Counted from the first letter of the stretch, positions 4,632 to 33,567 are shown. The stretch is DNA of 64,000 bases from Azolla caroliniana (GCA_043228905.1 JBHGNT010000007.1:6510001-6574000); one strand, 5' to 3'. Notes: a model not told the origin generated them from the letters alone. Made by a program: numbers and translations.

Positions 4632-4720
4632 TGTCAAGAATAGTACTAAAGCAAAGAGGGAATTAGTACTAAAGAAGAGAAGTACTATTAGTACTAAGAG
4701 GACGGGACTGCGTAAGATTC

Positions 4721-4802
<82 letters not shown>

Positions 4803-5132
4803 AGAAGAGAGATAGCGAGGAAGAGAGAGAGAGAGACGATGATAACAACTAATATATTATGTGAAGGATAAGTACAAAATGGCTAAGAGGCTTAAGACTA
4901 GCGTTGAACCAATTTGGTTCAACATAATGCCTAGTGCCTTCTTTTATAGTGTTCTCAGGAGTAATCCTTAAGCTTCTAGAATGTTCAAGAGAAATCTAGA
5001 ATATACATTAATTTCCTATAATAAAACTTAAATGAAAATAATATCCTACGTATTACAATAGATGGTATAATGGCCAAGAGCTCGACCCATATAACATAAG
5101 GTCATGGGTTCGAGTCTTGTCATATCATGGCA
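4632..5132 (-). repeat. 3' LTR of the Tcn1-like element, containing a (GA)n tract
   Basis: Near-identical to 16656-17124 apart from (GA)n length and scattered substitutions; TG...CA ends. Confidence 0.9.
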
Positions 5133-7717
5133 CTATCTCCCCCTGAAGGCGACAAGTGGAACGAGTCGACACTGATTGCGGACCGGGTTTGTCCGGATAC
5201 TTTCGATGGAACTCAGCAAGAAGATCCTAAGCATTGGCGACATGCTCGACGGGTTCCCAATTACGTTCACTCGGACTATAGCCGAGCCAATCGACCAAAT
5301 AATAAAGTTTGTTGCAAACAAATTTGGAGTTGAGGATGGCAGCAACTTCATACTCCGGGCCGACGTCTAACTCAAGCGGGGGCGACGATGGTGTAACACG
5401 ATTGGGAAGAGTGTTTGCTTTATAAGGTTCAAGAAGAGAACTATGGAAGACATTATTATACGCAAACTCCGCAAACTGGAGAATCTCGGCCCAATCGTCC
5501 TGTTGATAACTCAGGAAACATAGGAGATATTGCTTCAGCGTTTGGTTTGTTCGTTCTGCCCGCCCATCGATCTGAGGATGGTAGTCGGAGGAGAGGTTGC
5601 AAGAGACCTTGAGCATCTTGAAGAGATGCTGCCAAAATTTGGAGACAAATTGCGGTCCTCGGTCACTGATGATACTGTCTGGGAGGTCATGATGCCGAAA
5701 TACCTCACGCATGACAAGGGCGGCGGTTTCCTCTCTAGTGATGGCCTTAGTACACGGCACAAAATGTGCCATCTTCATATATCGATCGACGACGGTTAAG
5801 ATAGCATCGAACCCCTTCGAGACCGGCAGATCTGTGATAAAATCAAGACAAATAGACTGTCACGGCTTTCTTGGAATCAGTAAGGGTTCCAACAAGCCAT
5901 ATGGATGGTGTCGTGGCATCTTTGCTCGGCAGCAAGCATCACAGGTCTGAACGGAGTCATTGACAAAACGTCGCATATGGGGCCACCCAAAGGATCGTTG
6001 AACTAGATCCAACATCTTAGTGCTATCGAAATGTCCCACCATATGGGTGTTGTGACAACTTTGGACGATTTGAAGGCGACAGGAGCAATCGGGGACATAT
6101 ACAAGCTTTTTAAAGAATAACAAACCATCATGATATTCGAATTGTCGGTAATCCATACCTGGTTGCTAAGACTGGGAACATGATGCCCAAGAGGTATTAA
6201 TGTGCGCCAGAATGTCTTGAGCAAAATTGTTCGTCTTCAAATTCGCACGTATGGTGCCGATAATCTGGGAATCCATTGGGGTGTGAAAAATCCGCGTTGT
6301 GTGCAATCGTGTTGGTTCCAAGATTACTTGCTTTTGATTATCGAATGTGGGATCACCAGGATGAGGTGCAAGATATGAACGTCATGATAGTGCATCTGCC
6401 TTTCCTTGCTGCTTCCCCGGTCGATATGCGATTTTGAAATCAAAATGTGTGAGGAATTGAGCCCACCTAGCTTGTCGTCGATTTAGCACACGAGCGTTCT
6501 GGAAATTAGAAAGATTCTTGTGATCACTGAAGATGATGACCTGATGTGGAGAGCCCTCCAAAAAATGCCGACATTGCACAAATGAATCCACGATTGCTAA
6601 TAACTCCTTGTCATGTATTTCGTAGTTGATTTCCGCAGCATCGAATTTGCGCGAATGGAAAGCCACAAGATGTGACTCTTCTTTATCTCCTTGTTGAGAA
6701 AGGATGCTACCGACGGCGAAATCTGATGCGTCGGCCTCCATGATGAATGGTTTGCTTGTATCCACATGGGCTAGAATAGGTGCTGATGTAAAGGCTTTCT
6801 TAAGATGCCGAAAAGCCATGTCCGCTTCATTGGACCAAAGAAATGCTTGTCCCTTCTTTGTAAGTTGTGTGAGAGGTAAAATAATCTTCGAGTAATCCTG
6901 TATAAACTTGCGGTAGTTGTTAGCAAAACCTAGAAAACATTGTATATCTCATACTGGCCGTGGAATTTGCCACTCTAGCACAGTTTGGACTTTAGCTGGA
7001 TCCATGGCCTAGAAATTCCACTTGCTTGCAGTCGAAGCTACATTTTTCTAGCTTGGCATAAAGACCATTCTCGCGGAGTCGGTTTAGTACTAATAGTACA
7101 TGAGAATCGTGCTCCTCCTAGGTCTTCGAATAAATCAGTAGATCATCCAGATAGATGATCAAACCGATATCCAAGAGGTCTCTAAATATATCATTTCCCA
7201 TGTGTTGGAAGACTGCAGGTGCATTGGTTAGACCGAACGGCATAACAGTATATTCAAAATGCCCATACCACGTGCGAAAGGCGGTCTTCCATTCATCTCC
7301 CGGTCAGATCCCCACGAGGTTATACGCTCCTCGTAGATCGATTTTTGTAAAAAACTTGACAGCATTAACTCGCTCTAAAAGACTTGATATAAGAGGAAGT
7401 GCATACCTATTCCGGATGGTGACCTTATTTAAGCCGCGGTAATCAACAACAAGACGAAGTGAGCCATCTTTCTTCTTGACAAAGAAGATGGGTGCTCCGG
7501 CCGGAGATTTCGAATGACGAATAAACCCGCTTGCCAAGTTCTCCTCTATGTAGGCTCAAAGGACTTCTAACTCGGTGGGTGACAAGTTGTAGATTGGTCC
7601 CCATGGTGGCTCTGCTCCTGGTTGTAAATTGTAGGGACAATCATAGGGACGATGATGAGGAAGAGTACTGGCTTTTACCTTGTCAAATACGTCGGCATAA
7701 GGATGATATTTCACCGG

Positions 7718-8411
7718 TGTCGTGAAGAAAACCGCCCACAAGGGGAATCGGAGGAACAAGGCGTGGTAAACGGCTCTACACACACACGAGCGCCAAGAAG
7801 TACCTAAGGACGAAGTAGGTACATACGAGGATCCTAGGTGGGTAGATTCGGTTGGTATGCAGTTAATGCCAAACGGCCTCTTGACGGGCTATAAAAGGAA
7901 GAGGGAGAATAGAAGTGGGGTATCTCGCACGGAGAGGACGAAGTGCTGCCGAACCGATTTCGGGGCCTCTCTCTCACTCCCGCTTTCTCTGTCTTCTGCT
8001 CCATCGCGTACCTGTGCAGGTTTGGAGGAGGCTTGCGCTGTTCCGTGGAACGCCCCGAGTGCGTCCTGCAGCTCCTCCGACCTGTTTTCCCTTTCTGTGC
8101 GTCGCGACATACAGGGGTCGGCATCTGTTCGCCGCCCTGTTCGTTTCGCTAGTATCTATTTCGTGCCCCACCGTGGGTTGTAATACTTTAGTCTGTTATT
8201 TTCTTGCATTCATAAGTACATATCTTTCGTTGTTGCGTCCATTTGCGTCGGCGTTTATTTGTGATCTCTGTTTGTTGGGCCGTGTCCCTGTGCAATCTTC
8301 GGTTCTGTGTAATCGGGTCTCTCTCTCTTACTCCTCTCTCTCTTGCTCTTCGGTCCGAGACCCCCGTGGTCCCTCCTCCTTTCTGCACGCAAGGGCGTAG
8401 CAACCCCGACA
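7718..8411 (+). repeat. 5' LTR
   Basis: TGTCG...CGACA ends; TATAAAA at 7890-7896. Confidence 0.97.
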
Positions 8412-8414
8412 TCT

Positions 8415-8432
8415 TGGTGAACCCGACGTGAA
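8415..8432 (+). promoter_or_regulatory. Primer binding site, tRNA-Trp
   Basis: TGGTGAACCCGACGTGAA is the reverse complement of the 3' end of plant cytosolic tRNA-Trp as I recall it (...TTCACGTCGGGTTCACCA). Confidence 0.85.
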
Positions 8433-10581
8433 AGAGGCGGCAGAAGAGCAGAAGATGAGGGGGTCGGATCTCGCAGAGGCCATGGCTTCGGCCGTGGATC
8501 GCATTGTAAACGCGTGCGAGATCACCGGTGCCCTCGACAGAGCTATTGAGGCGGTCGTCGGCACGATCGGCCGGTTCGATGGGAAGGATGCCACGAAGTA
8601 TTTGGCGTCCTACGGTGCAGAGATGCTGATGCGGGACATTCCGGAAGAAAGGCGTCTTGCCGGATTTCCCCGAGTGGCGATGCCGAGCATCCATGCGGAG
8701 GTGCTCGAGGTGCGGACGGAGAGCCGTACCTGGGAGGAGTTCGAAGGTCGGCTCCTAGAGAAATACGGGCTGGACGACGCGCTCCGGCTTTCGAAGCGAA
8801 GGTTCATGGATTGGGTGGAGTCCCCGGGGAAGGGAAGAAACGCGTCGGCGCTCCTCCGGGAGTTCGAGGAAAACTTTGCGCGCCTTTCGGCGCTCGACCG
8901 AACCATCCTGGACACGAGCCGGGTCTTGCTGTTTGTCAAGTCGGTCGACGAACGGGATCGGGAGCACGTGGGCCTCTTGCTGGAAACCGAAGACGGGCTC
9001 ACTACGGACTGGGCGGCTGTCAGGAAGGTCTGTGGCCGTTTCGACAAACGGCGAGAATGGGCGGATAACGGTGCAACCGGGTCGGGCTCGGTCGCAGCAA
9101 GGAAGCTCGATCCAGCGCCACAGGTGCGAAAGGAAGAGACCCGAGAGTGGTTGGATACCGGTTCGGCTTCGACCGGCGTAGTCAGAGGCTCAACCGGAGG
9201 AGCGGCGCTGGAGGAATTGACGAAGGCGATAAAGGACCTCCAAATCGCGCAGGCCCGAAGGGAAGGAGGCGAACCGGCTCGTGACCGACGGCCGGCGGCA
9301 GGAAACAGGTGCATGTGGTGCGATGAAGTCGGCCACATTCGGAAGGACTGCGGCGACTTCGCGGAGGCGCTGAGGAACAGGGTGGTGTACCTGTGGGAAG
9401 GACGGGTGCATGCCAGCGACACCCGAAGGGCCCTGAGCCGAAACGACGGAAAGGGTGGTATGAAAAGGTTGATGGAAGAGGCGGCGGCCCGACACGCGGA
9501 AACCGTCCACTACTCGGCGTCGGCCGGCATTCGAGTCGGGGGCGGCGAGGCCCGAAGGGAAAGCAAAGCCGGATTCTGGCCGACGATGCTGGAAGGCCTT
9601 GCCGGTGCAAGGCTTAAAGGGGAGGAATCGGACCGTGCGGAGAAACGGGTACGGGAGATGACCGGGTGGAGCGACCCGGTCGAGGAAAAGACGGGCTTCG
9701 TGGAAGCCGCTTGCCGGAACTACGAGGCTCTGGTAGAAGAGAAGCGGGTGGGGAAACCCGGGACGACCGGGCCCTCACAACGATACGAGACCCGGTCCGG
9801 GCCACGACGGGACGAAGCCGGCGGGGCCGGTACGCAAGATAAACCCCAGAAGGGCGGGTACCGTCTGGGGACGGAGATAGAAAGAACCACGGACTTACGA
9901 AAGGTCCTGGAGGAACGGATCCTCGACAGCAAGGTGGAGCTGTCGCTACGGGAGGTGCTGGGAATCGCCAAGAAGGAGTTCCACGACTCCATCGTGGACT
10001 TGGTGAAACGGAAGAGGCTGTCAGCGGAGACAGAACCGGAAAGACCGGTGGAAGTGCGGACGACGCACCTAGACGACATGGCGCTGGGAGACGAGTGGGC
10101 GGAAAGCCACTATTCGAGACCGCACTGGGCCCGAGCGACCACGGAAACCCCGGTGAAGATCGGCGATGTCCAGGAACCGGTGATAGCTTTGGTAGACCAC
10201 GGATCGGAGATCAATTTGATGTCCATGGACTTCTATAAGAAGGGCAAATGGCCGATCAACACCAAGCACGGGTGGAAAATAAGGGCAGCAACGCGCGCCA
10301 CCGAGGAACTGCACGGGGCCTGTCCGAATGTGCGAGTCAAGATCGGCGACGTCGAGATTGACCAGCACTTCTTCGTGCAGGAGACGTCTTCGCATCCGGT
10401 CATACTGGGAGAGCCGTACATCACGGCGGCGCGAATGGAAACCAAGGTGCTGGACAATGGTTCGGCCTATGCGCGGGTCAAGAGCCAAGACGGGCGCCAT
10501 TCGGTCCAGTTTTTGACGGTTAGGCCGAACCACGAGCGTAACCGCGACTCCCTCGGTTCCGATAACCGAGAGGATTTTTAG
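8428..10581 (+). CDS. gag: Gag-protease polyprotein (ORF1); first ATG at 8455
   Basis: CMWCDEVGHIRKDC zinc knuckle; aspartic protease ALVDHGSEINLM...VILGEPY. Confidence 0.9.
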   Translation: MKEAAEEQKMRGSDLAEAMASAVDRIVNACEITGALDRAIEAVVGTIGRFDGKDATKYLASYGAEMLMRDIPEERRLAGFPRVAMPSIHAEVLEVRTESRTWEEFEGRLLEKYGLDDALRLSKRRFMDWVESPGKGRNASALLREFEENFARLSALDRTILDTSRVLLFVKSVDERDREHVGLLLETEDGLTTDWAAVRKVCGRFDKRREWADNGATGSGSVAARKLDPAPQVRKEETREWLDTGSASTGVVRGSTGGAALEELTKAIKDLQIAQARREGGEPARDRRPAAGNRCMWCDEVGHIRKDCGDFAEALRNRVVYLWEGRVHASDTRRALSRNDGKGGMKRLMEEAAARHAETVHYSASAGIRVGGGEARRESKAGFWPTMLEGLAGARLKGEESDRAEKRVREMTGWSDPVEEKTGFVEAACRNYEALVEEKRVGKPGTTGPSQRYETRSGPRRDEAGGAGTQDKPQKGGYRLGTEIERTTDLRKVLEERILDSKVELSLREVLGIAKKEFHDSIVDLVKRKRLSAETEPERPVEVRTTHLDDMALGDEWAESHYSRPHWARATTETPVKIGDVQEPVIALVDHGSEINLMSMDFYKKGKWPINTKHGWKIRAATRATEELHGACPNVRVKIGDVEIDQHFFVQETSSHPVILGEPYITAARMETKVLDNGSAYARVKSQDGRHSVQFLTVRPNHERNRDSLGSDNREDF

Positions 10582-10637
10582 AGAGGGCTGCCAAGGCGTG
10601 GGGCCGCGACAGTCCGGACACCCCGGGAAAACCCCAC
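10572..10637 (+). promoter_or_regulatory. Putative -1 frameshift signal: G_GAU_UUU plus H-type pseudoknot
   Basis: Heptamer at 10572-10578 immediately before the gag stop; 6-nt spacer; stem 1 10585-92/10608-15; stem 2 10598-603/10632-37; the -1 frame is open into pol. Confidence 0.8.
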
Positions 10638-10685
10638 ACCTGTACGATAAAACCAAAGAAACCTTGTACCATAGGTAGGGAATTT

Positions 10686-13600
10686 TTGTTCTCCGACAGC
10701 GGAGCGTGTACGATAGTCGGCATCGGCGGCCGAGAGAAGACAAAGGCGGAGGGGAGACTTCGAGCGTGCGGAGTTCTCGGCCCTGACGAGGAAATCAACG
10801 GAGCCGTGGAGGCGGTCTCATTCGACGACACCTTGGGAATGCTGGGAAAGGTAGTCGAAGAAGGCCTTAACGAAGACCGGACGATACCGGTGTGTTCCGA
10901 GGAGATGTACGGAGTCATCGCGGACTTCGGTCGAGGGCTCGAGTCAGTTCGGACGGCCCACGTAAGCACCAAGTACAAGACTGTGGACCGGAAGGTAAGG
11001 CCAGTCGCGGCACCCTTACCGGAGGACAGCGCGTCGAGAATCAAAGGGGTTGCATCGGACCCTAGTCTACGAGATCCGGCCTGCATAGGACACACCTTCA
11101 CCGACGAGACGCTCCGAGAGCTCAAAATCGGTGGGGGCGGGTTCCTACTGCCGGCGGAGGAAGACCGGTTTCGGAGAATGCTCGGAAGGCACGGGAAAGC
11201 CTTCGCATTCTCGCCGGAGGAAATCGGGTGCGTTGACCCGACGATCGTGGAGCCGATGGTGATATTCACGGTACCGCATGTACCATGGAATCTCAAGCCA
11301 ATCCCGGTTCCGAGAGCTCACATCCCGAAGTTGATGGAGCTGCTGAGGCAGAAAGTTGATATGGGAATTCTCGAGCCGTCGAGTGCCCCATATTCGAATC
11401 GATGGTTTACCGTACCGAAGAAAAACGGTTCGTTGCGCTTCATCCAGGACCTGCAGCCGGTCAATCGAGTGACCATTCGGAACGCAGGGATCGGACCGAC
11501 CATAGACGAGTTCGCGGAGGCCTTCGCCGGAAGGTCAATTTACTCGGTCGGGGATCTATACTCAGGGTACGACCAGTTCCAGCTAGCCGTGGAGAGCAGA
11601 GACATTACGACGATGCGAACTCCCCTCGGCCTAGTTCGGATGTGTACACTGCCGCAAGGAGGGACCAACTCGGTGGCCCACATGGTGAATGCGATGAACA
11701 AGGTTCTGAGGGACTGTATCCCGGACATCACCATGCCGTTTCTGGACGACATCCCGATCAAGGGATGCCCGGTGGAAGAAAAGGACGAGACGATCGGGCC
11801 GGGCGGATGTCGGCGATTCGTGGCGACGCACATCGACGACTGCGAGAAGGTGCTGCAAAGGCTAGAGGATGCGAGACTCACCTTCTCCGGGGAGAAGTCG
11901 GCCTTCGGGCAGTCAGAAATCATGGTGGTCGGACACCTGTGCGGACCATATGGCCGGAAACCGTCTCCGGCAAAGGTAGAAGCCATCTCCGCGATGAAGC
12001 CCGACTGCAGCTCGGTCACGGAAGTACGGAGATTCCTGGGGGCATGCGCGTTCTACCACATATGGATCCCGCATTACGCACACGTCGCGGAGCCACTGTA
12101 CGGGTTGCTGAAAAAGGGGCGAAGGTTCGAATGGCTAGACGAGCACGCGGAATCGGTCCGGAAGCTGAAAGAGGCCCTTACAGCGGCACCGGCACTCCGG
12201 AAGGCGGTATACGGGAAGGGTACCCCGGTATTCATAACGGTGGATACCAGTCCGACCGGGATCGGATGGGTCGTGAACCAGGAAGACGAGGACGGCGATC
12301 GGTTTCCGATCCGATTCGGCGCGAAAGTCCTCAGTGAACGGCAGCGAGGATACGCCCAGGTTAAGCGCGAACTCTGGGGTATTGTTTCGGCGGTTAAGGC
12401 CGACAAAGACTACCTGATAGGGACAGAAGTGATCATCGAGACGGATTGCCTGCCGATTCTCGGTATGGTTTCCGGATGCGCGACTCCGGACCTGGCGATG
12501 CTCAGGTGGATAGCGTACATCAAGTCCCTGGACCCGGAAATACGACACATTTCCGGGAAAGACAACGCCATGGCCGACATGCTTTCGAGGGCGAGGTTCG
12601 ACGACGAGGGCGGCATGGTTTCGGAAGACGAAGAAGTCGGCGTGGATTTCTTCGAGGCGGCATACGTAACGACCGACGGGATGAGCACTCCGGCGCTTAA
12701 CGAGTTCGACGCGAGCAAGTACGACGGGGAGTGGTTGCAGATCGGCGGGTTTTTGAAGACAATGACGCCCGATGCGTCATGGACGAAGGACGAGGCCAAC
12801 CGGATCCGGAAGAAAGCATATCGATTCTTTCTCCGAGATGGGCATTTGTGGAAGCACCCGAAGAAGAGGAACGGCGTCCCGCTCCGGGTGGTGGCGATGA
12901 AGGGAGAACAGGAGGAGCTACTGGCGGCCTACCACGACAGCCCTTGGGCTGGACACCGTGGAACGTGGGCGACATTTGAGAAGCTGAAGGGGAAGTACTG
13001 GTGGCCGGGATTGTACCGGGACGTGCATCGGTTCGTGTCAACTTGCGAGAGTTGTCAGATGCACTCGATAGTCCGACACCGGGACGGGCTTCGCCCTACG
13101 TACCCTCCGACTATCCACTTCAAATGGATGGTAGATCTGGTGACGATGCCGATGGGGGTAGGACAGATGCGGTATCTGGTCCTAGCGCGGGAAGACCTGA
13201 CGAACCAGGTGGAAGGCCGAGCCCTTCAGAACAAGACGACCGCGGCCGTGTGTCGGTTCCTGATCGAGGACGTGATATGCCGGTACGGGTGCGTCGGGAA
13301 GATCGTGGCTGACCGAGGGGAGTTGGACGCCGAGGAAGCCGCGGAGCTGTTCGATCGGCTGGGAGTCAAACTCTCGCTCACCACTGCGTACAACCCGGAG
13401 GCGAATGGAAAGGTGGAGCGCGGACACGGGCCGATCGTTAAAGCGCTGGTTCGGGCATGCGGAGGCCAAGTCGGTAACTGGCCGCGACTTCTACCTTATG
13501 CTTTGTGGGCCGATCGGACTACGCACAGTTCGGTAACCGGGTACATGCCGACAGAGCTCATGTTCGGCCAGAAGCCGATCATGCCGATGGAACGAACAAT

Positions 13601-14069
13601 CTCCTCATGGGCAACGGTCGACTGGAGGGACGAGATGAGCCGGGAGGAGTTGTTGGCAGCGCGTATACGACAACTCGAACGGAGACCGGAGGACGTGGAG
13701 ACGGCTGCAGAAAGGATCCGAGTGGCGAGGATAAAAAACAAAGCCAGGTTCGACCGAACGCACCGACTCCGACCGAAGAAGATCGAACAAGGTGACTGGG
13801 TGCTCGTCTACGACAGCAGCCTCGACAACCAGCACCGAGCAACGCGGAAGTTCGCACGGAGATGGTTCGGGCCGTACACGGTACAGAGCGCCAACGACAA
13901 CGGGACGTATCGTCTGGCGGAACTCGACGGTACGAGAATAGCGATACCCGTGGCCGGGAAGAGGATCAAAGCTTTCAAGAAGCGGCACGACGACGAACCC
14001 GACCCGATTCTCATGGACAGCAGCGACGACCGATCCGAGGCCGAGGAAGGGCCGGCAGGCGAAGAGTAA
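10686..14069 (+). CDS. pol: Pol (RT-RNaseH-integrase); frame is open from the slippery site at 10572; no chromodomain
   Basis: LPQG...PFLDD, VDTSPTGIG, ETDC, H-H-C-C zinc finger, WMVD/ADRGE/GKVER DDE triad, FGPY motif. Confidence 0.95.
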   Translation: MFSDSGACTIVGIGGREKTKAEGRLRACGVLGPDEEINGAVEAVSFDDTLGMLGKVVEEGLNEDRTIPVCSEEMYGVIADFGRGLESVRTAHVSTKYKTVDRKVRPVAAPLPEDSASRIKGVASDPSLRDPACIGHTFTDETLRELKIGGGGFLLPAEEDRFRRMLGRHGKAFAFSPEEIGCVDPTIVEPMVIFTVPHVPWNLKPIPVPRAHIPKLMELLRQKVDMGILEPSSAPYSNRWFTVPKKNGSLRFIQDLQPVNRVTIRNAGIGPTIDEFAEAFAGRSIYSVGDLYSGYDQFQLAVESRDITTMRTPLGLVRMCTLPQGGTNSVAHMVNAMNKVLRDCIPDITMPFLDDIPIKGCPVEEKDETIGPGGCRRFVATHIDDCEKVLQRLEDARLTFSGEKSAFGQSEIMVVGHLCGPYGRKPSPAKVEAISAMKPDCSSVTEVRRFLGACAFYHIWIPHYAHVAEPLYGLLKKGRRFEWLDEHAESVRKLKEALTAAPALRKAVYGKGTPVFITVDTSPTGIGWVVNQEDEDGDRFPIRFGAKVLSERQRGYAQVKRELWGIVSAVKADKDYLIGTEVIIETDCLPILGMVSGCATPDLAMLRWIAYIKSLDPEIRHISGKDNAMADMLSRARFDDEGGMVSEDEEVGVDFFEAAYVTTDGMSTPALNEFDASKYDGEWLQIGGFLKTMTPDASWTKDEANRIRKKAYRFFLRDGHLWKHPKKRNGVPLRVVAMKGEQEELLAAYHDSPWAGHRGTWATFEKLKGKYWWPGLYRDVHRFVSTCESCQMHSIVRHRDGLRPTYPPTIHFKWMVDLVTMPMGVGQMRYLVLAREDLTNQVEGRALQNKTTAAVCRFLIEDVICRYGCVGKIVADRGELDAEEAAELFDRLGVKLSLTTAYNPEANGKVERGHGPIVKALVRACGGQVGNWPRLLPYALWADRTTHSSVTGYMPTELMFGQKPIMPMERTISSWATVDWRDEMSREELLAARIRQLERRPEDVETAAERIRVARIKNKARFDRTHRLRPKKIEQGDWVLVYDSSLDNQHRATRKFARRWFGPYTVQSANDNGTYRLAELDGTRIAIPVAGKRIKAFKKRHDDEPDPILMDSSDDRSEAEEGPAGEE

Positions 14070-14141
14070 AGGCGGGCCGGTTTTCTCCGTGCCAACTTAA
14101 TTTGGCGCATGCCGGTGGATGCGCGGTTAGGTGGGGGCGGA

Positions 14142-14835
14142 TGTCGTGAAGAAAACCGCCCACAAGGGGAATCGGAGGAACAAGGCGTGGTAAACGGCTC
14201 TACACACACACGAGCGCCAAGAAGTACCTAAGGACGAAGTAGGTACATACGAGGATCCTAGGTGGGTAGATTCGGTTGGTATGCAGTTAATGCCAAACGG
14301 CCTCTTGACGGGCTATAAAAGGAAGAGGGAGAATAGAAGTGGGGTATCTCGCACGGAGAGGACGAAGTGCTGCCGAACCGATTTCGGGGCCTCTCTCTCA
14401 CTCCCGCTTTCTCTGTCTTCTGCTCCATCGCGTACCTGTGCAGGTTTGGAGGAGGCTTGCGCTGTTCCGTGGAACGCCCCGAGTGCGTCCTGCAGCTCCT
14501 CCGACCTGTTTTCCCTTTCTGTGCGTCGCGACATACAGGGGTCGGCATCTGTTCGCCGCCCTGTTCGTTTCGCTAGTATCTATTTCGTGCCCCACCGTGG
14601 GTTGTAATACTTTAGTCTGTTATTTTCTTGCATTCATAAGTACATATCTTTCGTTGTTGCGTCCATTTGCGTCGGCGTTTATTTGTGATCTCTGTTTGTT
14701 GGGTCGTGTCCCTGTGCAATCTTCGGTTCTGTGTAATCGGGTCTCTCTCTCTTACTCCTCTCTCTCTTGCTCTTCGGTCCGAGACCCCCGTGGTCCCTCC
14801 TCCTTTCTGCACGCAAGGGCGTAGCAACCCCGACA
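14142..14835 (+). repeat. 3' LTR
   Basis: Copy of 7718-8411. Confidence 0.97.
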
Positions 14836-15386
14836 CCGGAAGTTGCACTAAGGATTCCTCCTTAATATTGCTGGAAGGATGTACTGATATGGCAAATAGG
14901 AACGTTGCCTCCTTGTGTCCTTCTTCGCGTAGTTGACGTAATGAAATGGTCGAAACTCGATGAGTAGATTCTTGGGGTTGTCGATACCGGACTTCTCTTG
15001 TTCTCCAATCTATGTCTGGATTGTGTAGTTCAAACCAAGGTAATCCCAGGACAATGGGATGCTTTGGACTACTAATAATATTAAATGATACTACACACAC
15101 AAAACTACCTAGGACAACCTGAATGGGTTCTGACTCCTCTACAATTTTCCCGGAACCAATGGGACGACCATCAATGACTACTACAAATGCGGGGCAAGGA
15201 AGTTTTCTTAAGGATATTTGAGAAGCTTGGGCAAAATTTCGATCCATGAAACAGGAATTGGCTCTGGAATCTAAAAGTGCTAGGACTTGTACTGGGGGAG
15301 TACTTTTAGTACTAACCATGACTTGGGCTAGGAACACATTGCTAACTTGCTTGGAGGGAATGGAACCACTAATGGGTTGTACAGAT

Positions 15387-15439
15387 CTAGGGTTGTCCAA
15401 CCAAACGACTCCTATTTTGGTTGGACTCAATCGTTTAAC
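15387..15439 (-). promoter_or_regulatory. Putative -1 ribosomal frameshift signal (G_UUA_AAC plus stem-loop/pseudoknot) between gag and pol
   Basis: gag is open from the zinc knuckle to GAG TTA AAC GAT TGA; pol (ORF ending 15430) is in the -1 frame; a perfect 11-bp stem lies 6 nt downstream. Confidence 0.75.
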
Positions 15440-16641
15440 TCTTCATCTAATTGACTAAGGATTTCAAATTTGTTTGAGATACTTGGGCTATTAGTACTAT
15501 TAATACTATCATACACTATATTAGTACTATTAATACTATTAGACACTCCTAAGGGAAAAATTGACTCCGGTTTAGTACAGGCTACGATTTGATTTACCTG
15601 TCTTCTTGACCTATGGGGACAATTGATTGCGATATGCCCTGGTCCTCCGCAATACAGACATAATTGATTTGCACGGCGTCGTTGCTTTTCTTCTTCCGAT
15701 AACGGGCCACGTCAACGCATGGTGTCAATCTCCATCAGTGTCAGAGTATTTGCTTGGGGTACGTCGCGTGCGAACGCTTTAGTCGCGACTGAGGCATATG
15801 TGGGCTCCGGCCTAGAGCATGGTATTTGTAATTGATGTTTGGAACGTCGTTTGAAAAGGCGGTTGTCACATCGGACCGCTCGACTAATTGCCTCGGTAAG
15901 AGATTTTGGTTCTTCAAGGAAGGTTTAAAGTAAATCTTTTACATTGTTTCGCAGGCCGTAACAAAACTGCTCCATTAGTGCCTGATCATCCCAGGGAATA
16001 TCGGAGGTGAGTAGACGGAAATCTATCGCATAGGCAAAGGCTCGACGATCGCCTTGACGCAATCGTCGGATCTTGTTGATCGTCGTCCTAATGTTGTCGA
16101 TGTCTCCAAAGTAGACTTTAAACTCACTAATAAAATCTTGAAAGTTATTAAGCAAGGGCGATTGTTTTTCTAGAAGCGGAGCGAACCATGCTAAGGCTGA
16201 GCCACTAAGCAACGTGCCTATTAGGCCGACTCGGGATGCATCACTGGGGTATCGGGAAGGATGCATTTGGATAACAAATCGTACCTGATTAGGGAATCCA
16301 CTGAATTGCGATCGCGTTCCATCAAATTTCACAGGAAGTCCAATCTTCGACTCTTTATGAAATCCTTGGGGACTTGATCCTTGTTGTTGCAATGCTGCTT
16401 CGAGTTGTTGTACACCCGTAACGCTAACTCCCCATGTTGTTGCTGCATTTGTTGTTTTTCTAGAGCAATTTGTTGGAGATCCCCTATCAGCCGTTGGTTT
16501 TCTTGTTCCAAGGCAACAATTTTTTCTTTTAGGCACTGTATCTCAGAGAAAACGGATTGATATTCTTGGGCGCTAACCGTAGCCATAATATAGGGAAAAG
16601 CGTAGGAGGATGAGGGAGAACGACAAGTAGGCTGGAGGAAG

Positions 16642-16655
16642 AAATTGGTTCAAAC
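16642..16655 (-). promoter_or_regulatory. Putative self-priming PBS (not tRNA-complementary)
   Basis: Minus-strand GTTTGAACCAATTT directly after the LTR is complementary to AAATTGGTTCAA, ~33 nt downstream of the LTR TATA box. Confidence 0.7.
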
Positions 16656-16745
16656 TGTCAGGAATAGTACTAAAGCAAAGAGGGAATTAGTACTAAAGAA
16701 GAGAAGTATTGTTAGTACTAAGAGGACGGGAATGTGTAAGATTCC

Positions 16746-16793
<48 letters not shown>

Positions 16794-17124
16794 AGAAGAG
16801 AGATAGCGAGGAAGAGAGAGATAGAGATGATGATAACAGCTAATATATTATGTGAAGGGATAAGTACAAAATGGCTAAGAGGCTTAAGACTGACGTTGAA
16901 CCAATTTGGTTCAACATAATGCCTAGTGCCTTCTTTTATAGTGTTCTCAGGAGTAATCCTGAAGCTTCTAGAATGTTCAAGAGAAATCTAGAATATACAT
17001 TAATTTCCTATAATAAAACTTAAATGAAAATAATATCCTACGTATTACAATAGATGGTATAATGGTCAAGAGCTCAACCCATATAACATAAGGTCATGGG
17101 TTTGAGTCTTGCCATATCATGACA
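16656..17124 (-). repeat. 5' LTR of the Tcn1-like element
   Basis: Pairs with 4632-5132; minus-strand TATAAAA at 16934-16940. Confidence 0.9.
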
Positions 17125-20047: not shown

Positions 20048-20681
20048 TGTCGAGGAGAAAACTGCCCCTAGGAAGAATCAAAGGGGAAGAAGCGTGACCC
20101 AATCCTTTTCACGTGTGTGTGTGTTTATGAATTGTATATAGCTAGGAATAGATCGGCTGATGTACATATGTACTAGGAAGGGTATTAATTGTCTAGGGAA
20201 TCGATGCGTATCTCTGTCCGAAAGGACAGAGAATAAAGTTGATATATTTTGATGTAACGGCCTCCTCGGCGACCTATAAAAGGGAGGGGAGAAGAAGGAG
20301 ATAGGTATCGCATTTTGGCAAGGATGAAGTGTTATCGGACTAGGAACCGAGCTCTCTCCTCCTCAACCATTGCTCTCCACTACGTTTCAGTGTCGGTTGC
20401 CTCTGTTGCGTGTATGCCCGCGTGCTTCCAGGGGAGGCTCCATTGTGCGTTCTCTGTGTCGTCTGTGTGTGTGCGTGGGACCTCCGTTTTGGGTCTGTTG
20501 CCGGTTTTCCGGTTGTAATCGTTGTTGACATCGTAATTGAATCTTCCGTTCCCGTTTCTCTCTCTCTCTCTCTCTCTGTGAGTTTCTCTGAATCGCTCTC
20601 CCTCTTCTTTCTCACACTCCTTGGTTCAGGGCCCCCACGGTCCCCCCTCATATACACACGCGAGAGCGTAACAACATGACA
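20048..20681 (+). repeat. 5' LTR of the inverted element
   Basis: Similar to 33568-34203; followed by the PBS. Confidence 0.9.
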
Positions 20682-20722
20682 TAATTTGGTGAACCTGACA
20701 TGAAAGAAGGCGGCAAAAGGAG

Positions 20723-21772
20723 TTGAAGATGAGGGGATCCGAGCTTGCTGAAGCTATGGCAGTACCCATCGAGCGGCTAGTGAGTGCTTGTGGAGGAACG
20801 AGTGCCCTTGATACGGCCATAGAATCGATTGTCGGCACCATAGGCCAATTCGGTGGAAAGAAAGCCATGAGCTATTTGGAGGCCTATCAGGCTGAAATGA
20901 TCATGAGGGACATCCCGGAGGAAAGACGGTTGTCCGGATTCCCGCGAGTGGTGACGCCGAGCATCCACGCAGAGGTGCTCGAGGTGCTGGCCGGATGTCA
21001 GGCTTGGGTGGAGCTCGAAGTGCGGCTCCTCGAGAAGTACGGGTACGACGATTCGCTTCGCTTGTCGAAGTGGGACTTCATGGCTTGGGTTGAGAGCCCT
21101 GGAAAGGGGAGGAATGCGTCGGTGCTCCTCCAGGAATTCGAACAACAATTCGCTAGGCTGTCAGCGCTGGATCAGACCGTGCTTGACACGAGCAGGGTCT
21201 TGTTGTTTGCCAAGTCGGTGCACAAGCTAGATCGAGAGAAGGTGGCTCTCCTATTCGAGACAGATGACGGCCTCATAGTCGACTGGGTCATGGTCAAAGG
21301 GGTTTGTGCCCGCTTTGACAAGCAACGCGAGTGGAGCGATGAGGCCTCGACGGTGTCGGGGCCAGTCCCAGCGAGAAAGCTCGAGGAGCCGGTATCGGTG
21401 CCGGCTGGGAAGGAAGAGACCTTGAATTGGCTCGAGACGGGCCCAGCCTCGAGTGGAGTGGTCCAAGGCTCTTCCGGAGGAGCAGCTCTGGAAGAGCTGA
21501 CGCGAATGGTGCGCGACCTCCAGATCGCACAAGCACGGAGCGACAACGGCGATCAACCTCGTGAACGGACGCCCCTGACGGGGCAGCGATGCATGTGGTG
21601 TGACACGGTCGGTCACATCCGGAAAGAATGTGTGGATTTCGCAGAGGCACTCCGGGCCAATGTGGTGTACCTCTGGAATGGGCGGGTGCATGCCGGCGAC
21701 ATGCAGAAAGCCCTAGAGTTGAACACCGGGCGCGGCGGGATGAAGTGCTTGATGGAAGAAGCCGCAACGTGA
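20723..21772 (+). pseudogene. gag: gag 5' part, ending in a premature stop
   Basis: Homologous to 8428-10581, including CMWCDTVGHIRKEC. Confidence 0.85.
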
Positions 21773-23327
21773 CATGTAGAGGTCGTCCACTACTCCGCGT
21801 TGGCGGGTATTTGGGTCAGGGGCGACGAGGGCCAACAAGCGAAAGACTCTGGTAGGGCCTGCACAGGTGACCGACCACTAGGATCTCCGATTGGCCGAAC
21901 GCCGATTTCTCCCCGGAGAAGGTGAGCCGCGCGTCATCCACCCTCTGCAACACCTTCTCGCAGTCATTAATATGGTCCACGACGAACCTCCAACATCCAT
22001 CCGGCCCAAATGCCTCGTCCTTATCCTCCATCGGGCATCCTTTGATCGGGATGTCATCCAGGAATGGCATGGTGATGTCTGGGATGCAGTCCCTCAGCAC
22101 CTTGTTCATCGCATTCACCATGTGCGCCACTGAGTTTGTCCCTCCTTGCGGCAGGGTACACATCCGCACTAAGCCGAGAGGGGTCCGCATCGTCGTGATA
22201 TCCCTGCTCTCCACGACTAGTTGGAACTGATCGTACCCCGAGTACAGATCACCGAATGAATAGATCGACCTTCCGGCGAAGGCTTCCGTGAACTCGTCTA
22301 TTGTTGGTCCGATACCTGCATTACAAATGGTCACCCTGTTGACCGGTTGTAGGTCCTAAATGAAGTGCAACGTGCCGCTCTTCTTTGGCACGGTAAACCA
22401 CCAATTCGAGTATGGGGCGTTCGACGGTTCGAGTATGCCCATCTCCACCTTCTGCTTCAGTAGCTCCATCAACTTCGGGATGTGAGCTTTGGGTACTGGA
22501 ATCGGCTTGAGATTCCACAGCACATGCGGCACCATCGGCTCCAGGTCCACGCACCCGATCTCCTCCGGCGAGAATGCAAAGGCTCTCTCGTGCCTTCTGA
22601 GCATCCTCTGAAACCAGTCTTCCTCCGTCGGCAATAGAAACCCACCCCCACCGACCTTGAGCTCCCGTAGCATTATGTCGGTGAATCGGTGCCCTATGCC
22701 GACCGGATGATGTAAACTCGGGTCAGACGCGACCCCCTCTATCCGCTCTCCGCTACCCTTCGGCAAGGGTGTCGCGACTAGCCTCACCTTCCGGTCCACA
22801 GTCTTGTACCTGGTATCCATGTGGGCCGTCCAACCGGACCCGACCCTTTCCCCAAAGTCCACGATGACTTCGTACATCTCCATTGAACTAACTGGAACTT
22901 CTCGGTCCTCACTAAGGCCTCCTTCGAAAACCTTGCGTAATTCCCCCCAGGTATCATTGAAGGAGACCGCCTCCACGGCACTACCAATCTCTTCACCAGG
23001 GCCGAGGACTCCGTACGCCTTGAGTCTTTCTTCTGCCCTCTTCTTTTCCCGGCCACTGAGGCCGACTATAGTACAACCCTCATTATCGGAGATCCAAAAT
23101 TTCCTATCTATGGTACATGTGTGGGGTTCTTCCGGGGTGTTCGGACTATCGTGGCCCCACGCCTTGATAGCCCTCTCTAAAAATCCCCTCAGCTCTCGCC
23201 GCCGAGGGTTTCACGGTTACGCTCATGGTTCGGCCTCATTGTCAAAAATTGAATGGAGCGTTGTCCATCCTAGCTCTTGATGCGTGCGTACGCCGATCCG
23301 TTGTCAACCACCTTCATTTCCATCCGT

Positions 23328-24131
23328 TGACGTGCCTTTCGGCTCCGGATCGTTGCGTGAGTCGGGTGGGAACCACAGAGGTCTTGGACTAGGAGAAAGA
23401 AGTTCGTGAGATAGAGATTAATTATGAGTAAATAGCAAAGAGAAAGATAAGAAACTCGTGAATCACACGAGTATACTATATTAATTGGTACTTAGGGTGT
23501 TAAGAGAGAAGTAGATGTATAAATCGTGAATCCCACGAATAATTTTTGTATTGAAAATATATTTGATCCAAACAATCAACAACAACTACAATGTGCTCCC
23601 CGTCCTTATATAGTGATGGGAGAGACTAAGCATAGCTACATGCTTTTTCTAATATGATCATGCACACTAAATGTGCATGTGATGCTTTTTTTTATTTCCT
23701 AAGTATAGGGCTCATGCACGCTAGATGTGCATGAGTTATTTTTAGTGTCTCGTGTTTTTCTTTTTCATATATTAAAAAAATACACGATTTACCTTTTAAT
23801 AAAGGTATGCATAAATAAAGGTCTTATACGTATTAAATCTATTTTTAAAACACTTAAGATAAGTTAATGTAATGGTAAGGTTGGGGTTTGTCAACGTGGA
23901 GGTGCAAAGTTCGAATCACGCCCTGCGCAGTAGTGAGTATTTCCTTTTATTTTACATTTATGTCTCTTTATCCGACTCTTCCTTGCCGGTATGCCGTTTT
24001 CTTCCTTGCCGGTATGCCGTTTTCCTCCTTGCCGGTATGCCGTTTTCTTCCGGTTCTCACCGAGCACTCCATTCTCTATCCGGAGAGACAAAAATATAAT
24101 TTCCACATAGTGTGCAACCTACACTACGACA
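23328..24131 (-). repeat. 3' LTR (804 bp; three copies of a 23-bp unit)
   Basis: Matches 29799-30582. Confidence 0.93.
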
Positions 24132-27100
24132 CTCGCCCCCTCCAAACCCGCACATCCTCCGGTATGTGCCGAAGTTCTTGATTCCTCGTATCCGTCTTCA
24201 TCCGAAGCTTCCTCCGATTCTCCCCTTATGTCGACTATGAGTTGTAATCCACTTTCTTCGCTTCCCGCATCATTGTGGTCTTCGTCCGATTGCTCCTCGT
24301 TGTCGGTCTCGACTTGGATCACATAAGGTTTGTCGTCGGTCCGCTTCTTGAAAATCTTCACCCGCTTCCCGGCTATAGGCACTCGTAGTATTGTTCCATC
24401 CAACTCGGACAGTCGGTACGTCCCGTTGTCGAAGACCTGCCGAACCTCGTACGGCCCGAACCACCTTTTCGCGAATTTCCGCATCGTTGTATGTTGATGG
24501 TCCAAGCTACTATCATAGACGATCACCCAATCTCCTTCTTCAATCCTCCTCGGTCGTAGTCGGTGCTTTGTGACGAACCGGCTTTTGTTCCGGAACCGTG
24601 CTTCTTGTTGTCGGCGTGACGCTTCCGCTACATCTTTCGGTCTTCCCTCCAGTTGTCGTATCCGGACCGCTAGTAGTTCTTCCCGGCTCATCTCTTCCTT
24701 CCACGGTAGTATTGTCCATGTCGCGATTGCGGTTTCCGTTGGCATTACCGGTGCTTGTCCGGTCATGAGTTCTGCCGGCATGTAACCGGTCACGGAGCTA
24801 TGCGTCGTCCGATCCGCCCATAGTGCATACGGAAGCATTTGTGGCCAATCCTTCACCCTTCCGTCGCATGCCTTCGCAAGTGCTTTCACGATCGGACTAT
24901 GTCCTCGTTCGATCTTCCCGTTGGCCTCCGGATTGTAGGCCGTTGTCAACGTTAACCGAACTCCATGTTTGGCGAAGAATCCCCTAGCTTTGTCCGAGTC
25001 GAGTTCTCCCCGGTCCGCAATCACTTGTCCTACGCAGCCGTACCTACAAAACACTTCTTCCAAAAGAAATTGGCACACCGCGGCACACGTTTTCCTCCGA
25101 AGCGCTCGACCTTCAACTTGGTTTGTGAGATCTTCTCGAGCTAACACCAAGTATTTCTTTTGTCCAATCCCGGTCGGCATAGCTACAATGTCGACCATCC
25201 ACTTGAAGTTGATTGTCGGTGAGAATGTCGGATGCAGCTCATCTCGGTGTCGGACCCCGGAGTAGACTTGACATTTCTCGCAGCTTTCTGTGAACTCCGC
25301 GACATCTTTATACATGTTCTTCCACCAATATCTTTGCTTGATTTTCACAAAAGTTGCTCATGTTCCTCGATGTCCAGCCCAATCGGATTCGTGGAACTCG
25401 GACATTATCCGGTTTCGTTGCTCTTTCGTCCCGACTACTCGAAGTGGTATCCCATCCGGTCTTTTCGGCGTCCTCCATATTAAACCGTTTTCCAAGAAGA
25501 ACTTTTGGACTTGCCTCTTCTTCCTTCGGATCTCGGCTCTCCTTTCTTTATCATTGGTTGAATCCTCGACCTCTTGTAGCATCTTCCCGATCATCAAGGT
25601 TTCCCCCTCGTATTCTTCTTCCCGGAATTCTCGGATCACGTTCACTCGGCATATGTGTTCTGACGTGAAGTAGTCTTCGGAAACTTCTTCATTATCTGAT
25701 TCGGTTATGTCGTCTTCAAACCGCGCCCTCGATAACATGTCCGCTACTGCGTTGTCCTTCCCCGAGATGTGTCGAACCTCCGGATTAAGTGACTTGACAT
25801 ATGCAATCCACCTTAGCATAGCCACATCCGGTATCGTACAACACCGCATCATCCCGAGTATCGGAAGACAATCCGTCTCGATCACCACTTCAGCTCCGAT
25901 CAAATAATCCCGATCCGATTTTATCGCCGACACGACTCCCCACAATTCTCTTTTGACTTGTGCATATCGGCGTTGCCTTTCGTTGAGGACCTTTGCTCCA
26001 AATCGGATCGGATACCGCGAACCATCCGAGTCGGCTTGATTGATGACCCACCCGATACCGGTTGGACTTGTATCAACCGTTACTATGATTGGCCGCTCGT
26101 AGCTTGGCTTCTTAAGTGATTCCGCCCTCCATAGTGTCTTCTTGAGCTTCCTCATGGCTTTAGTGTGTTCCGGTTTCCACTCGAATTTCTTACCTTTCCG
26201 CAACAAGTGATAGAGCGGGTCCGCTATATGTGCATAGTGCGGAATCCATATGTGATAGAATGCACACGCACCCAGAAACCTTCGGACTTCCGATGTTGAC
26301 TCACATACTTCCTTCATAGCTTGAATCGCATCGATCTTTGTTGGTGACGGTCTTCGGCCGTAGGGTCCACATAGATGTCCGACCACCAATATTTCTTCTT
26401 GCCCGAATGCCGATTTCTCCCCGGAAAGTGTTAGGTGCACATCTTCTAGCTTTCGCAACACTTTCTCGCAATCATGAATATGGTCGACCACGAACTTTCG
26501 GCATCCCCGATCATCCATAGTCTCATCTTTTTCTTCCACCGCGCATCCTTTCATCGGAATGTCATCTAGAAACGGCATCGTTATCTCCAGGATGCAATCT
26601 CGAAGCACCTTGTTCATCGCGTTCATCATATGTGCAACCGAGTTTGTCGCTCCTTGTGGTAGTGTGCACATTCGAACTAGTCCTATCGGTGTCCGCATGG
26701 TAGTGATGTCTCGGCTCTCCACGGCTAGTTGGAATTGGTCATACCCCGAGTATAGGTCCCCGATGGAGTATATCGCACGTCCGGCAAAAGCTTCCGCGAA
26801 TTCGTCCACTATCGGACCGACTCCCGAGTTCCGGATCGTGACCTTGTTCACCGGTTGCAAGTCTTGGATGAATCGGAGTGACCCATTCTTCTTCGGAACC
26901 GTAAACCATCGATTTGAGTACGGAGCACTTGATGGCTCTAGAATCCCCATCGCCACCTTCTCCTTGAGCAAGTCGATGACTTTCGGAATATGCGCCCGTG
27001 GCACCGGAATCGGCTTCAGGTTCCACGGTACATGATCAATCGTGAAAATCACCATCGGCTCCACTATCTTTGGATCAATGCATCCGATCTCCCTCGATGT

Positions 27101-27730
27101 GAACGCGAATGCTTTGCCATGTTGCTCCAACATCTCTCGAAACCGTTTTTCTTCTTCTTGTAAGAGGAACCCACCTCCACCGATCCGAAGTTTCTTCCGG
27201 GTCTCATCTGTGAAGGCATGTCCGATATCCACGGACTTCCGAAGTGTCGGATCTCCCGAGACTTCTTTCTTCTTTTGTTCGCTATCGGCGGGTAGTGGTC
27301 CCGCGGCCGGTTTCACCTTCTTCTCCACGGTCTTGTATTTCGTACTTACCATTGCTTCTTCTTTGCGGAGCGCATCCGGCCCCATTTTCGCAACGATCTC
27401 GTACATCTCGACCGATTCCACCGGGACTACCCGGTTCCCTTGGCTTTTATCTTCCGCAAGCTCTTCAAGCCGTTGTAGTGTATTCCCATAGAACACTTCC
27501 TCGATCACTCCCACGATTTCTTCGTCTTCTTTTATTATTGATGCCGACCGTAACTTATCCTCCACTTGTCGGTATTGTTTCTTCATTCCTCCGGTTACGG
27601 CCGTGTACGTAGATGCCCCATCCGGGCCGATTCGTACTTGTTTTGCTCCGAGAGGTTTCTTCCTGTGTAGGGTATCAGGGCTTCTCGGACTATCACTTCC
27701 CCACTCCGCAACAGTCCGCTTTAAAAATCC
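24119..27730 (-). pseudogene. pol: pol with a single TGG>TGA nonsense codon near 25358
   Basis: ORFs 25358-27586 and 24119-25348 are in the same frame (GHRGT*ATF); the -1 frame is open from the slippery site at 27730. Confidence 0.9.
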
Positions 27731-29760: not shown

Positions 29761-29798
29761 CTCCTTGCCACCCGTCTTCACGTCGGGTTCACCAACTG

Positions 29799-30582
29799 TG
29801 TCGTGCCTTTCGGCTCCGGATCGTTGCGTGAGTCGGGTGGGAACCACAGAGGTCTTGGACTAGGAGAAAGAAGTTCGTGAGATAGAGATTAATTATGAGT
29901 AAATAGCAAAGAGAAAGATAAGAAACTCGTGAATCACACGAGTATACTATATTAATTGGTACTTAGGGTGTTAAGAGAGAAGTAGATGTATAAATCGTGA
30001 ATCCCACGAATAATTTTTGTATTGAAAATATATTTGATCCAAACAATCAACAACAACTACAATGTGCTCCCCGTCCTTATATAGTGATGGGAGAGACTAA
30101 GCATAGCTACATGCTTTTTCTAATATGATCATGCACACTAAATGTGCATGTGATGCTTTTTTTTATTTCCTAAGTATAGGGCTCATGCACGCTAGATGTG
30201 CATGAGTTATTTTTAGTGTCTCGTGTTTTTCTTTTTCATATATTAAAAAAATACACGATTTACCTTTTAATAAAGGTATGCATAAATAAAGGTCTTATAC
30301 GTATTAAATCTATTTTTAAAACACTTAAGATAAGTTAATGTAATGGTAAGGTTGGGGTTTGTCAACGTGGAGGTGCAGAGTTCGAATCACGCCCTGCGTA
30401 ATAGTGAGTATTTCGTTTTATTTTACATTTATGTCTCTTTATCCGGCTCTTCCTTGCCGCCGGTATGCCGTTTTCTTCCTTGCCGGTATGCCGTTTTCTT
30501 CCGGTTCTCACCGAGCACTCCATTCTCTATCCGGAGAGACAAAAATATAATTTCCACATAGTGTGCAACCTACACTACGACA
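29799..30582 (-). repeat. 5' LTR (784 bp; two copies of the 23-bp unit)
   Basis: Followed on the minus strand by the tRNA-Trp PBS. Confidence 0.93.
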
Positions 30583-31408
30583 CCGTGCCGTCGTAATGTA
30601 TGGCTCGCCGAGTATCACCGGGCGCGAGGAGGTCTCCTGCACAAAGAAGTGTTAATCTATCTCAATGTCGCCGATCTTTACGCGTACATTCGGGCACACA
30701 CTATGCAACTCCTCCGTAGCGCGTGTCGCCGCGCGTATCTTCCACCCGTGCTTGGTGTTGATCGGCCACTTCCCCTTTCTGTAGAAGTCCATGGACATCA
30801 GGTTGATCTCTGAGCCATGTTCTATCAATGCCACCACCGGCTCCTGCACGTCCCCAACCCGGACAGGGGTCTCCATAGTGGTCCTGGCCCAATGCGGCTT
30901 CGCGTAGTAGTTGTCCATCAACTCATCCTCTAGGGTTGTGTCTTCTAGGTGCGTCATCCACACCTCCACGGGCTTCTCCGGTTCCGGCTCCGTCGAGAGC
31001 CGCTTCCGCTTCACCATGTCCACAATGGAGTCATGGAACTCCTTCTTGGCGATTTCAAGCACCTCCCTCAGCAACAACTCCACCTTGCTGTCGAGAATCG
31101 GCTCCTCGAGGACCTTCCATAGGTCCGTTAACCTCTCAATCTCTGTGCTCAACCGGTAACCAGCCCGGTGTTGCCAGCATCGTTCTGCTTTGGTCCAAAC
31201 CGGTTGTTGTACCGTTGTGAGGGACCGGCACCCCCAGCCCTTCCCGCGCGCTTGTCTTCTACCAAAACCTCGTAGTTCTGGCATGCAGCTTCCACGAAGC
31301 CAGTCTTTTCTTAAACCGGATTGTCCCACCCGTTGACCTCCCAGATACGCTGTTCCGCGCGGTCCGCCTGCTCCTTCCTTAGTCGTACCCCGGAGAGGCC
31401 TTCCAGCA

Positions 31409-33495: not shown

Positions 33496-33567
33496 ACTAG
33501 GGCCGGTTTCCGCCAAGGTTGTTCCTACCTGGACGTACCGGTGGACGTGCGGTTTGCTGGGGGTGGA

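Follow-up and report, generated by a model that had tools for sequence, protein, structure and literature searches.

A very likely pseudoknot-stimulated -1 frameshift after the protease of Phygy-type retrotransposons, with a likely switch to -2 in one branch

Background

How does an LTR retrotransposon make its polymerase when the reading frame for Gag and protease closes before the reverse transcriptase (RT) and the pol frame lies one base back? The question is raised by a stretch of 64,000 nucleotides from Azolla caroliniana (GCA_043228905.1 JBHGNT010000007.1:6510001-6574000; hereafter the window, with positions counted from its first letter), across which LTR retrotransposons are nested one inside another. 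An initial annotation of the window proposed that Phygy-type gypsy elements carry a -1 frameshift signal with a covarying pseudoknot, placed after the protease. We present a comparison of this junction across families. From the sequences we regard it as highly probable that the Gag-protease ORF of these elements ends at G GAT TTT with a hairpin and likely pseudoknot 6 nt further on, an arrangement that would give a -1 fusion protein in a minority of translation events.

A Gag-protease ORF followed by a separate ORF for RT, RNase H and integrase prevails in two plant lineages, Retand, where a single stop separates them (49%), and Ogre, where a gap or intron does (35%); in the same survey table an overlap at the protease/RT junction is listed for no plant lineage, the ORF overlaps of Tcn1 and Selgy lie before the protease, and the ORF organisation of Phygy is entered as ND (PMC6317226). 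Gag-Pro fusions are also standard in RSV/ASLV (PMC12789967). Because a protease in the first ORF is known from RSV/ASLV, Ogre and Retand, the layout itself is not strange, and the initial annotation overstated its case in calling unusual a layout with protease at Gag level and only RT-RH-INT limited. According to a 2016 review, a 2003 survey of retrotransposon recoding signals reported only +1 arrangements among split-frame elements of plants (PMC5009743). Our search of the open-access literature returned no description of the present signal and none of a -2 shift in a retrotransposon, and the same signal was not found in passages of PMC11963269 and PMC7466625; for plants, it is a frameshift at the protease/RT junction that we did not find in print in that literature.

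Methods

Relatives were chosen by a scan on two protein motifs, independently of the RNA signal. Of 176 metagenome loci the best 80 were taken, which with 2 loci from genome contigs makes 82; of these, 12 were set aside: 9 stop short of the junction and 3 (L007, L068 and L076) are decayed or rearranged, with neither a signal nor a downstream RT, L076 having A in place of the first G of the heptamer. The remaining 70 loci and three copies from the window form 38 families at 90% identity, so that all counts of loci and families given below refer to the best 80 of 176. A search of viral contigs found no relatives. Loci L081 and L082 lie on contigs filed under cyanobacterial and Streptomyces genomes and encode this eukaryotic element, L081 with the full signal; their placement in bacterial genomes is probably contamination. 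The unfitted alignment used for RNA structure contains 34 of the 38 families and leaves out one truncated, two decayed and one near-duplicate family.

Results

The elements that carry the signal, and their parts outside the signal itself, are as follows.

7718-14835, + strand: element A, a full-length Phygy-type Ty3/gypsy LTR retrotransposon, delimited by LTR comparison and flanks
7718-8411 and 14142-14835, + strand: LTRs of element A, differing at 1 of 694 bases
8415-8431, + strand: primer-binding site of element A, 17 nt long, behind the 5' LTR; the same site is found in element B
8455-10581, + strand: ORF1 of element A, encoding Gag (helical region, CCHC-like motif, DUF4100) and aspartic protease and ending Asp-Phe-stop
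10566-14069, + strand: ORF2 of element A in the -1 frame, encoding a linker of ~130 codons, RT, RNase H and integrase; chromodomain absent
23328-30583, - strand: element B, of Phygy type with LTRs 96.6% alike, lying within the protease gene of element C
20048-34203, + strand: element C, an older copy, LTRs 92.6% alike

A 9.6-kb segment of element C (21853-31408) is inverted, with breakpoints in gag and RT and with element B inside the inverted piece, and a clean target-site duplication is absent from C. The primer-binding site of A and B, which may match tRNA-Trp, is complementary to a string that occurs in plant small-RNA listings. Both A and B are flanked by 4-bp duplications of the form NCGN (CCGG and ACGG, respectively), and the Pfam scan and ORF map give the gypsy order RT-RH-INT with no chromodomain, extra aRH or extra ORF. 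Among the homologues of ORF1, the nearest named ones come from Physcomitrium patens, Riccia and Adiantum. The Phygy clade of plant non-chromovirus Ty3/gypsy elements is defined with a 4-bp NCGN duplication and a tRNA-Trp primer site in 81% of members (PMC6317226), and the duplication, the compact internal region, the lack of a chromodomain and the P. patens homologues agree with it, as the initial annotation had it. The present elements are slightly shorter (7118 bp for A and 7256 bp for B, i.e., 7.1-7.3 kb, against 7.7-10.0 kb in Phygy, a range taken from P. patens alone), and the available description of Phygy includes no recoding signal (PMC6317226).

The place of the break relative to the protease follows from the content of the two ORFs. 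Near the end of ORF1, 127 residues before it, a D-H-G-S motif (10195-10206) is invariant in 92 aligned homologues. Pfam hits for this protease are weak and a profile search of PDB sequences with it returned nothing useful, while the AlphaFold model built with the 92 homologues matches the proteases of Ddi1 (RVP domain), EIAV, XMRV and HIV, with a best E of 1.5e-06 and 38 structure matches at E 0.001 or better. The modelled region 5' of the ORF1 stop is thus predicted to have the retropepsin fold. In ORF2, Pfam recognises RT, RNase H and integrase and no protease. The motif and fold in ORF1, together with the lack of a protease in ORF2, place the break after the protease, where it had been proposed to lie. 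The active-site motif is D-H-G-S here, not D-T/S-G.

Protein databases extend the comparison of ORF1 ends. Among 120 listed homologues, 65 end in DF and 25 more in a [DG]F-x3-P[LF] tail. A representative search added 24 further proteins with a usable tail, of which 6 end in DF, GF or NF, 5 have the motif followed by 1-6 residues, 9 run on and 4 end otherwise; several of the run-on proteins look like spliced gene models or deletions, which taken without their DNA count neither for nor against the signal. A large group of ORF1 relatives of 800-900 residues (P0065-P0126) also ends in x-Asp-Phe, and from these ends the signal probably reaches well beyond the families that can be read at the DNA level.

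The frame of pol relative to ORF1 was determined in the 64 loci with an RT (best 80 of 176): it is -1 in 62, -2 (equivalently +1) in two, and in frame in none. Since pol is never in frame (0/64), readthrough of the stop was rejected. Counted by family, pol is in -1 in 31 and in -2 in 2 of the 33 with an RT, and an overlapping frame open from the site is found in all 31 of the -1 families. The pol frame is free of stops from the heptamer to the RT (121-156 codons) in 33/33 families, against 3-26 stops in each of the other frames, and its linker has a dN/dS of 0.17-0.55, i.e., weak purifying selection. In two families the pol frame opens just 9 nt before the end of the heptamer, which confines the shift to the heptamer. 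The linker itself (the first ~130 codons of ORF2, from 10585 on, in element A) is variable, comprises 121-156 codons and has no Pfam hit.

The components of the predicted signal in the three window copies are located as follows.

10572-10578, + strand: predicted slippery heptamer G GAT TTT of element A
10579-10584, + strand: 6-nt spacer of A, the first three bases being the ORF1 stop TAG
10585-10615, + strand: stem 1 hairpin of A, 31 nt (arms 10585-10592 and 10608-10615, with one C-A mismatch)
10598-10603, + strand: 5' strand of stem 2 of A, GTGGGG, inside the stem 1 loop
10632-10637, + strand: predicted 3' strand of stem 2 of A, CCCCAC, after a 16-nt loop
27667-27730, - strand: frameshift signal of B (heptamer 27730-27724; stem 1, 27717-27708 with 27696-27687; stem 2, 27704-27699 with 27672-27667)
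23121-23186, - strand: frameshift signal of the decayed copy C (heptamer 23186-23180; stem 1, 23173-23166 with 23150-23143; stem 2, 23160-23155 with 23126-23121)

The window holds nine occurrences of GGATTTT, and only these three stand in such a context, each followed by TAG or TAA and with CCCCAC or CCCTAC 14-16 nt beyond stem 1. The heptamers, TAR stops, 6-nt spacers, stems, GTGGGG loop and loop partners all lie where the initial annotation had put them. Its statement that the -1 frame runs without a stop into RT in two intact copies holds as to the open frame, which extends from the heptamer into RT in A and B, and fails as to intactness, B having an in-frame stop in the integrase region (25358-25360). 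In copy C, which is split by the insertion of B and by the inversion and has stops in ORF1 already 5' of the heptamer, the -1 frame stays open across the linker as far as the beginning of RT.

Taken singly, the window copies are unconvincing as RNA structures. Stem 1 of A is weak (-5.6 kcal/mol), and the minimum-energy structure of A folded alone contains stem 2 with stem 1 absent (z = 0.16); single-sequence folding does not discriminate, with z ranging from 0.16 to -3.3. Stem 2 in single copies, compared with shuffled sequences, gives p of 0.07-0.26, none significant, and a search of Rfam over 10480-10760 had no match at E 5. The case above chance consequently comes from the comparison across families.

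At the slippery site, the first G of the heptamer occupies a third codon position and is G in 38/38 families (best 80 of 176 loci) over 13 different amino acids, for which the background frequency of G at that position is 0.22-0.61; with one draw per degenerate amino acid, p is about 1e-5. The second codon is GAT in 33 families, GTT in 3 and GGT in 2, the third is TTT in 35 and TTC in 3, and Asp is written GAT in all 33 families that have it, compared with 64% in the background. The site is of the X_XXY_YYZ type in the zero frame, with G_GA tolerated: G_GAU_UUU is the shift site of the plant virus PEMV2, G_GA also occurs in dianthoviruses, and G_GGU_UUU ranks among the most shifty heptamers (PMC5009743). 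The variants G GGT TTT, G GTT TTC and G GAT TTC are likewise predicted to remain slippery. The initial annotation had counted TAR as part of the signal, which the families contradict: the codon after the heptamer is any of the three stops in 29/38 and a sense codon in 9/38, and in five families the stop lies 15 nt further 3' with heptamer and stem kept.

Stem 1 is recovered by RNAalifold unaided from the 34-family alignment. Over its 10 pairs 87% of cells pair and 8 of the 10 pairs change on both sides; the covariation score is 0.428 versus 0.240 for shuffled alignments (reached in 0/500, a count that is not a probability because the families are related by descent), and registers slid along the alignment score 0.05-0.18. 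Parsimony on a protein tree of 33 families assigns 36 changes to paired states and 7 to unpaired states, with 14 double changes that keep a pair versus 1 in each slid register. The 31-nt core of the structure stands 6 nt downstream, within the 5-9 nt reported for stimulators of -1 sites (PMC5009743). An extra outer pair is possible in 13/37 families. If formed, it would leave a spacer of 5 nt in families whose pol remains in -1, which means that the direction of the shift is not decided by spacer length alone.

For stem 2, the pairing of loop and 3' partner within a family has a mean energy of -11.2 kcal/mol, as compared with -8.4 for shuffles and -9.4 for partners from other families (n = 33), and -10.8 versus -8.1 (own versus other) in the 18 divergent families, with 0/10,000 permutations as good in either comparison, counts to be read with the same caution about common descent; the loop paired with windows further 3' gives -4.9 to -6.1. 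Against their own shuffles, 11/33 families reach p < 0.05 and 2/33 are worse than the shuffle mean. The register varies, with the partner starting 11-16 nt past stem 1 in 31/33 families, and partners have changed together across families (for example, GAGGGU:ACCCUC and GCGAGA:UCUCGC). The loop of stem 1 is therefore likely to pair 3' with covariation, as in an H-type pseudoknot. Covariation of both stems across families is in line with the covarying pseudoknot of the initial annotation, and together with the frames and the heptamer it backs the -1 frameshift signal as a whole. Chance was rejected on the tests of the frames, the heptamer G, stem 1 and stem 2.

The two families with pol in the -2 frame, L054 (2835-2908) and L058 (2497-2570), have CAG GTT TTT followed by GAC or TAC and then TAG, and stem 1 starts 5 nt after the last TTT, one base nearer than in the -1 families. 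In the -2/+1 frame pol reads open over 1154 codons in L054 and 1101 in L058, and each linker holds 10 stops in the -1 frame. They are sister families (support 100 in a quick tree) with pol 83% identical, and their RT-RH-INT has a dS of about 1.1 and a dN/dS of 0.086, like pairs of -1 families; in both stems the changes between them keep the pairs. An assembly slip in L054 was rejected, because a contig from another, independent run spans the same junction with one substitution and no gap. RNA runs contributed 0 and 3 reads at the -2 family, and a second protein search found no third -2 family.

Discussion

A pseudoknot-stimulated -1 frameshift in these elements is very likely on the comparative evidence. 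Most ribosomes would stop at the end of ORF1 and release Gag-protease. With Asp-tRNA on GAU and Phe-tRNA on UUU, a ribosome pausing at the pseudoknot could in a minority of cases slip one base back, both tRNAs re-pairing, to GGA and UUU, to produce a Gag-protease-RT-RNaseH-integrase fusion. Protease would in this way be made at Gag level, and RT and integrase would be sub-stoichiometric.

Alternatives differ in which part of the signal they dispense with. Stem 1 might drive the -1 shift as a simple hairpin, with the loop pairing unneeded or serving RNA dimerisation or packaging, a reading suggested by the shortness of stem 2, its richness in G, its varying register and its significance in 11/33 families taken singly; we consider it unlikely, given that own-family pairing beat cross-family pairing in every one of 10,000 permutations, that partners changed together and that their position is held within 11-16 nt in 31/33 families. 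Another kind of slip, either of a single Phe-tRNA along the U run while a stop occupies the A site or of the polymerase on U5, would suit the U run, which is mostly five long, and the stop directly after TTT in 29/38 families. It is quite improbable, however: in 9/38 families the next codon is a sense codon, the U run of several is limited to U3-U4, and such routes need neither the invariant 5' G nor the GAT codon.

It is harder still to credit that pol is expressed by splicing, from a separate transcript or from an internal AUG, with the hairpin controlling that step. Ogre does have an intron at this junction (PMC6317226), and RNA coverage of the present elements is shallow. Nevertheless, the ORFs overlap without a gap, no stop interrupts the pol frame across the linker in 33/33 families and its dN/dS is as given above, no donor-like site is common to more than 8/38 families, and the first Met in the pol frame falls anywhere from codon 3 to codon 111. 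Three polyA RNA runs contain no joint at the junction, which argues weakly in the same direction, at a depth of ~4-20 reads from both strands and from relatives mostly 90-95% alike.

As to the -2 branch, RG_GUU_UUU is the -2 shift site of arteriviruses (PMC5644247), and -2 shifting has been found optimal at spacers 1-2 nt shorter than -1, as shown on engineered spacers (PMC3458567; PMC4937337). At the one-base-shorter distance of L054 and L058, a -2 slip, which we consider likely, would bring the ribosome to the same UUU, as measured from the stem, that the -1 slip reaches elsewhere. We accordingly lean, from sequence comparison, towards a pseudoknot-driven -1 shift after the protease of which one branch has switched the same knot to -2 by means of an ORF1 one base closer and RG_GUU_UUU. 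That these two families are instead dead or non-autonomous after the loss of one base, or use +1, is possible if doubtful: their junction is one base from the -1 type, they are only two, the L054 contig carries a stop in ORF1, and +1 reaches the same frame as -2. Yet five 724-aa proteins of the L054 cluster end alike, pol has stayed under purifying selection over a dS of 1.1, and both stems covary between the two families; re-pairing on UUU after a +1 shift works in L058 (UUU-U) and is poor in L054 (UUU-G), whereas A-site re-pairing after a -2 shift is perfect in both.

Among known systems, the alpharetroviruses RSV/ASLV are alike in having the protease as part of Gag and pol made by a -1 shift with a pseudoknot near the gag end (PMC12789967; PMC5009743); the elements studied here, in contrast, are LTR retrotransposons in which no env ORF was seen; their site is G_GAU_UUU, their protease has D-H-G-S, and a linker of ~130 codons precedes RT. 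Ogre and Retand (Tat) share the break after the protease, made by a gap or intron and by a single stop, respectively (PMC6317226), where we find overlapping ORFs, a slippery site and a predicted pseudoknot. Umbraviruses and dianthoviruses (PEMV2) have the same G_GAU_UUU near a stop and on plant ribosomes (PMC5009743); their stimulator is a stem-loop with kilobase-range pairing, in place of which these elements have a local H-type knot of ~55 nt.

L054 and L058 resemble the arterivirus nsp2TF system at the shift site, where both match RG_GUU_UUU with an ORF in the -2 frame, and the -1 frame of L054 stops at once, like nsp2N (PMC5644247). The arterivirus shift depends on nsp1beta and PCBP acting at a C-rich motif at a distance of 10-11 nt, without RNA structure (PMC5644247), whereas in these families the CCCANCUCC motif is absent from the aligned downstream sequence, a covarying hairpin structure stands at 5 nt and it is the essential pol that would be produced; as judged from their sequences, they are not members of that type. 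Shifting by -2 is known in phage Mu, arteriviruses and TVV1, and both shifts occur among relatives in the Trichomonas vaginalis viruses (-2 in TVV1, -1 in TVV2-4), as here (PMC5009743). TVV is a dsRNA virus, and in the present elements the -1 and -2 families visibly retain a single stimulator in common.

With these results Phygy, entered as ND in the survey table, would be assigned a definite mode of expression. Because the 2003 survey reported only +1 for split-frame elements of plants, a structured -1 signal native to the retroelements of a plant genome would be a further class. The families also offer about 38 naturally occurring versions of a single compact frameshift element for work on plant ribosomes. 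The larger point is the -2 pair, through which a single stimulator can be compared directly in matching -1 and -2 forms taken from nature; if the switch is true, the branch would show -2 shifting stimulated by RNA structure occurring naturally in a retroelement, and evolution would itself have put the mRNA-tension model to the test. For annotators, a gag-protease ORF out of frame with pol should not lead to these elements being scored as broken.

Other features of the window

Element A is hosted by a decayed chromovirus-type gypsy element (4632-17124, - strand) with a chromodomain and integrase at 5227-5856, a capsid region at 15925-16539 and LTR-like repeats 89.8% alike. Two side elements are a truncated fourth Phygy-type pol on the - strand (1-2448), which does not include the junction, and a decayed copia element on the + strand (37265-40185). 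Dispersed AT-rich repeats, each 300-460 nt long and 75-90% alike, occur in 4 or more copies over 52764-63632. In the integrase region of element A (13034-13140), 8 RNA reads from 3 runs skip 105 nt with ends GT..TG, reflecting either a deletion in a relative or a splice.
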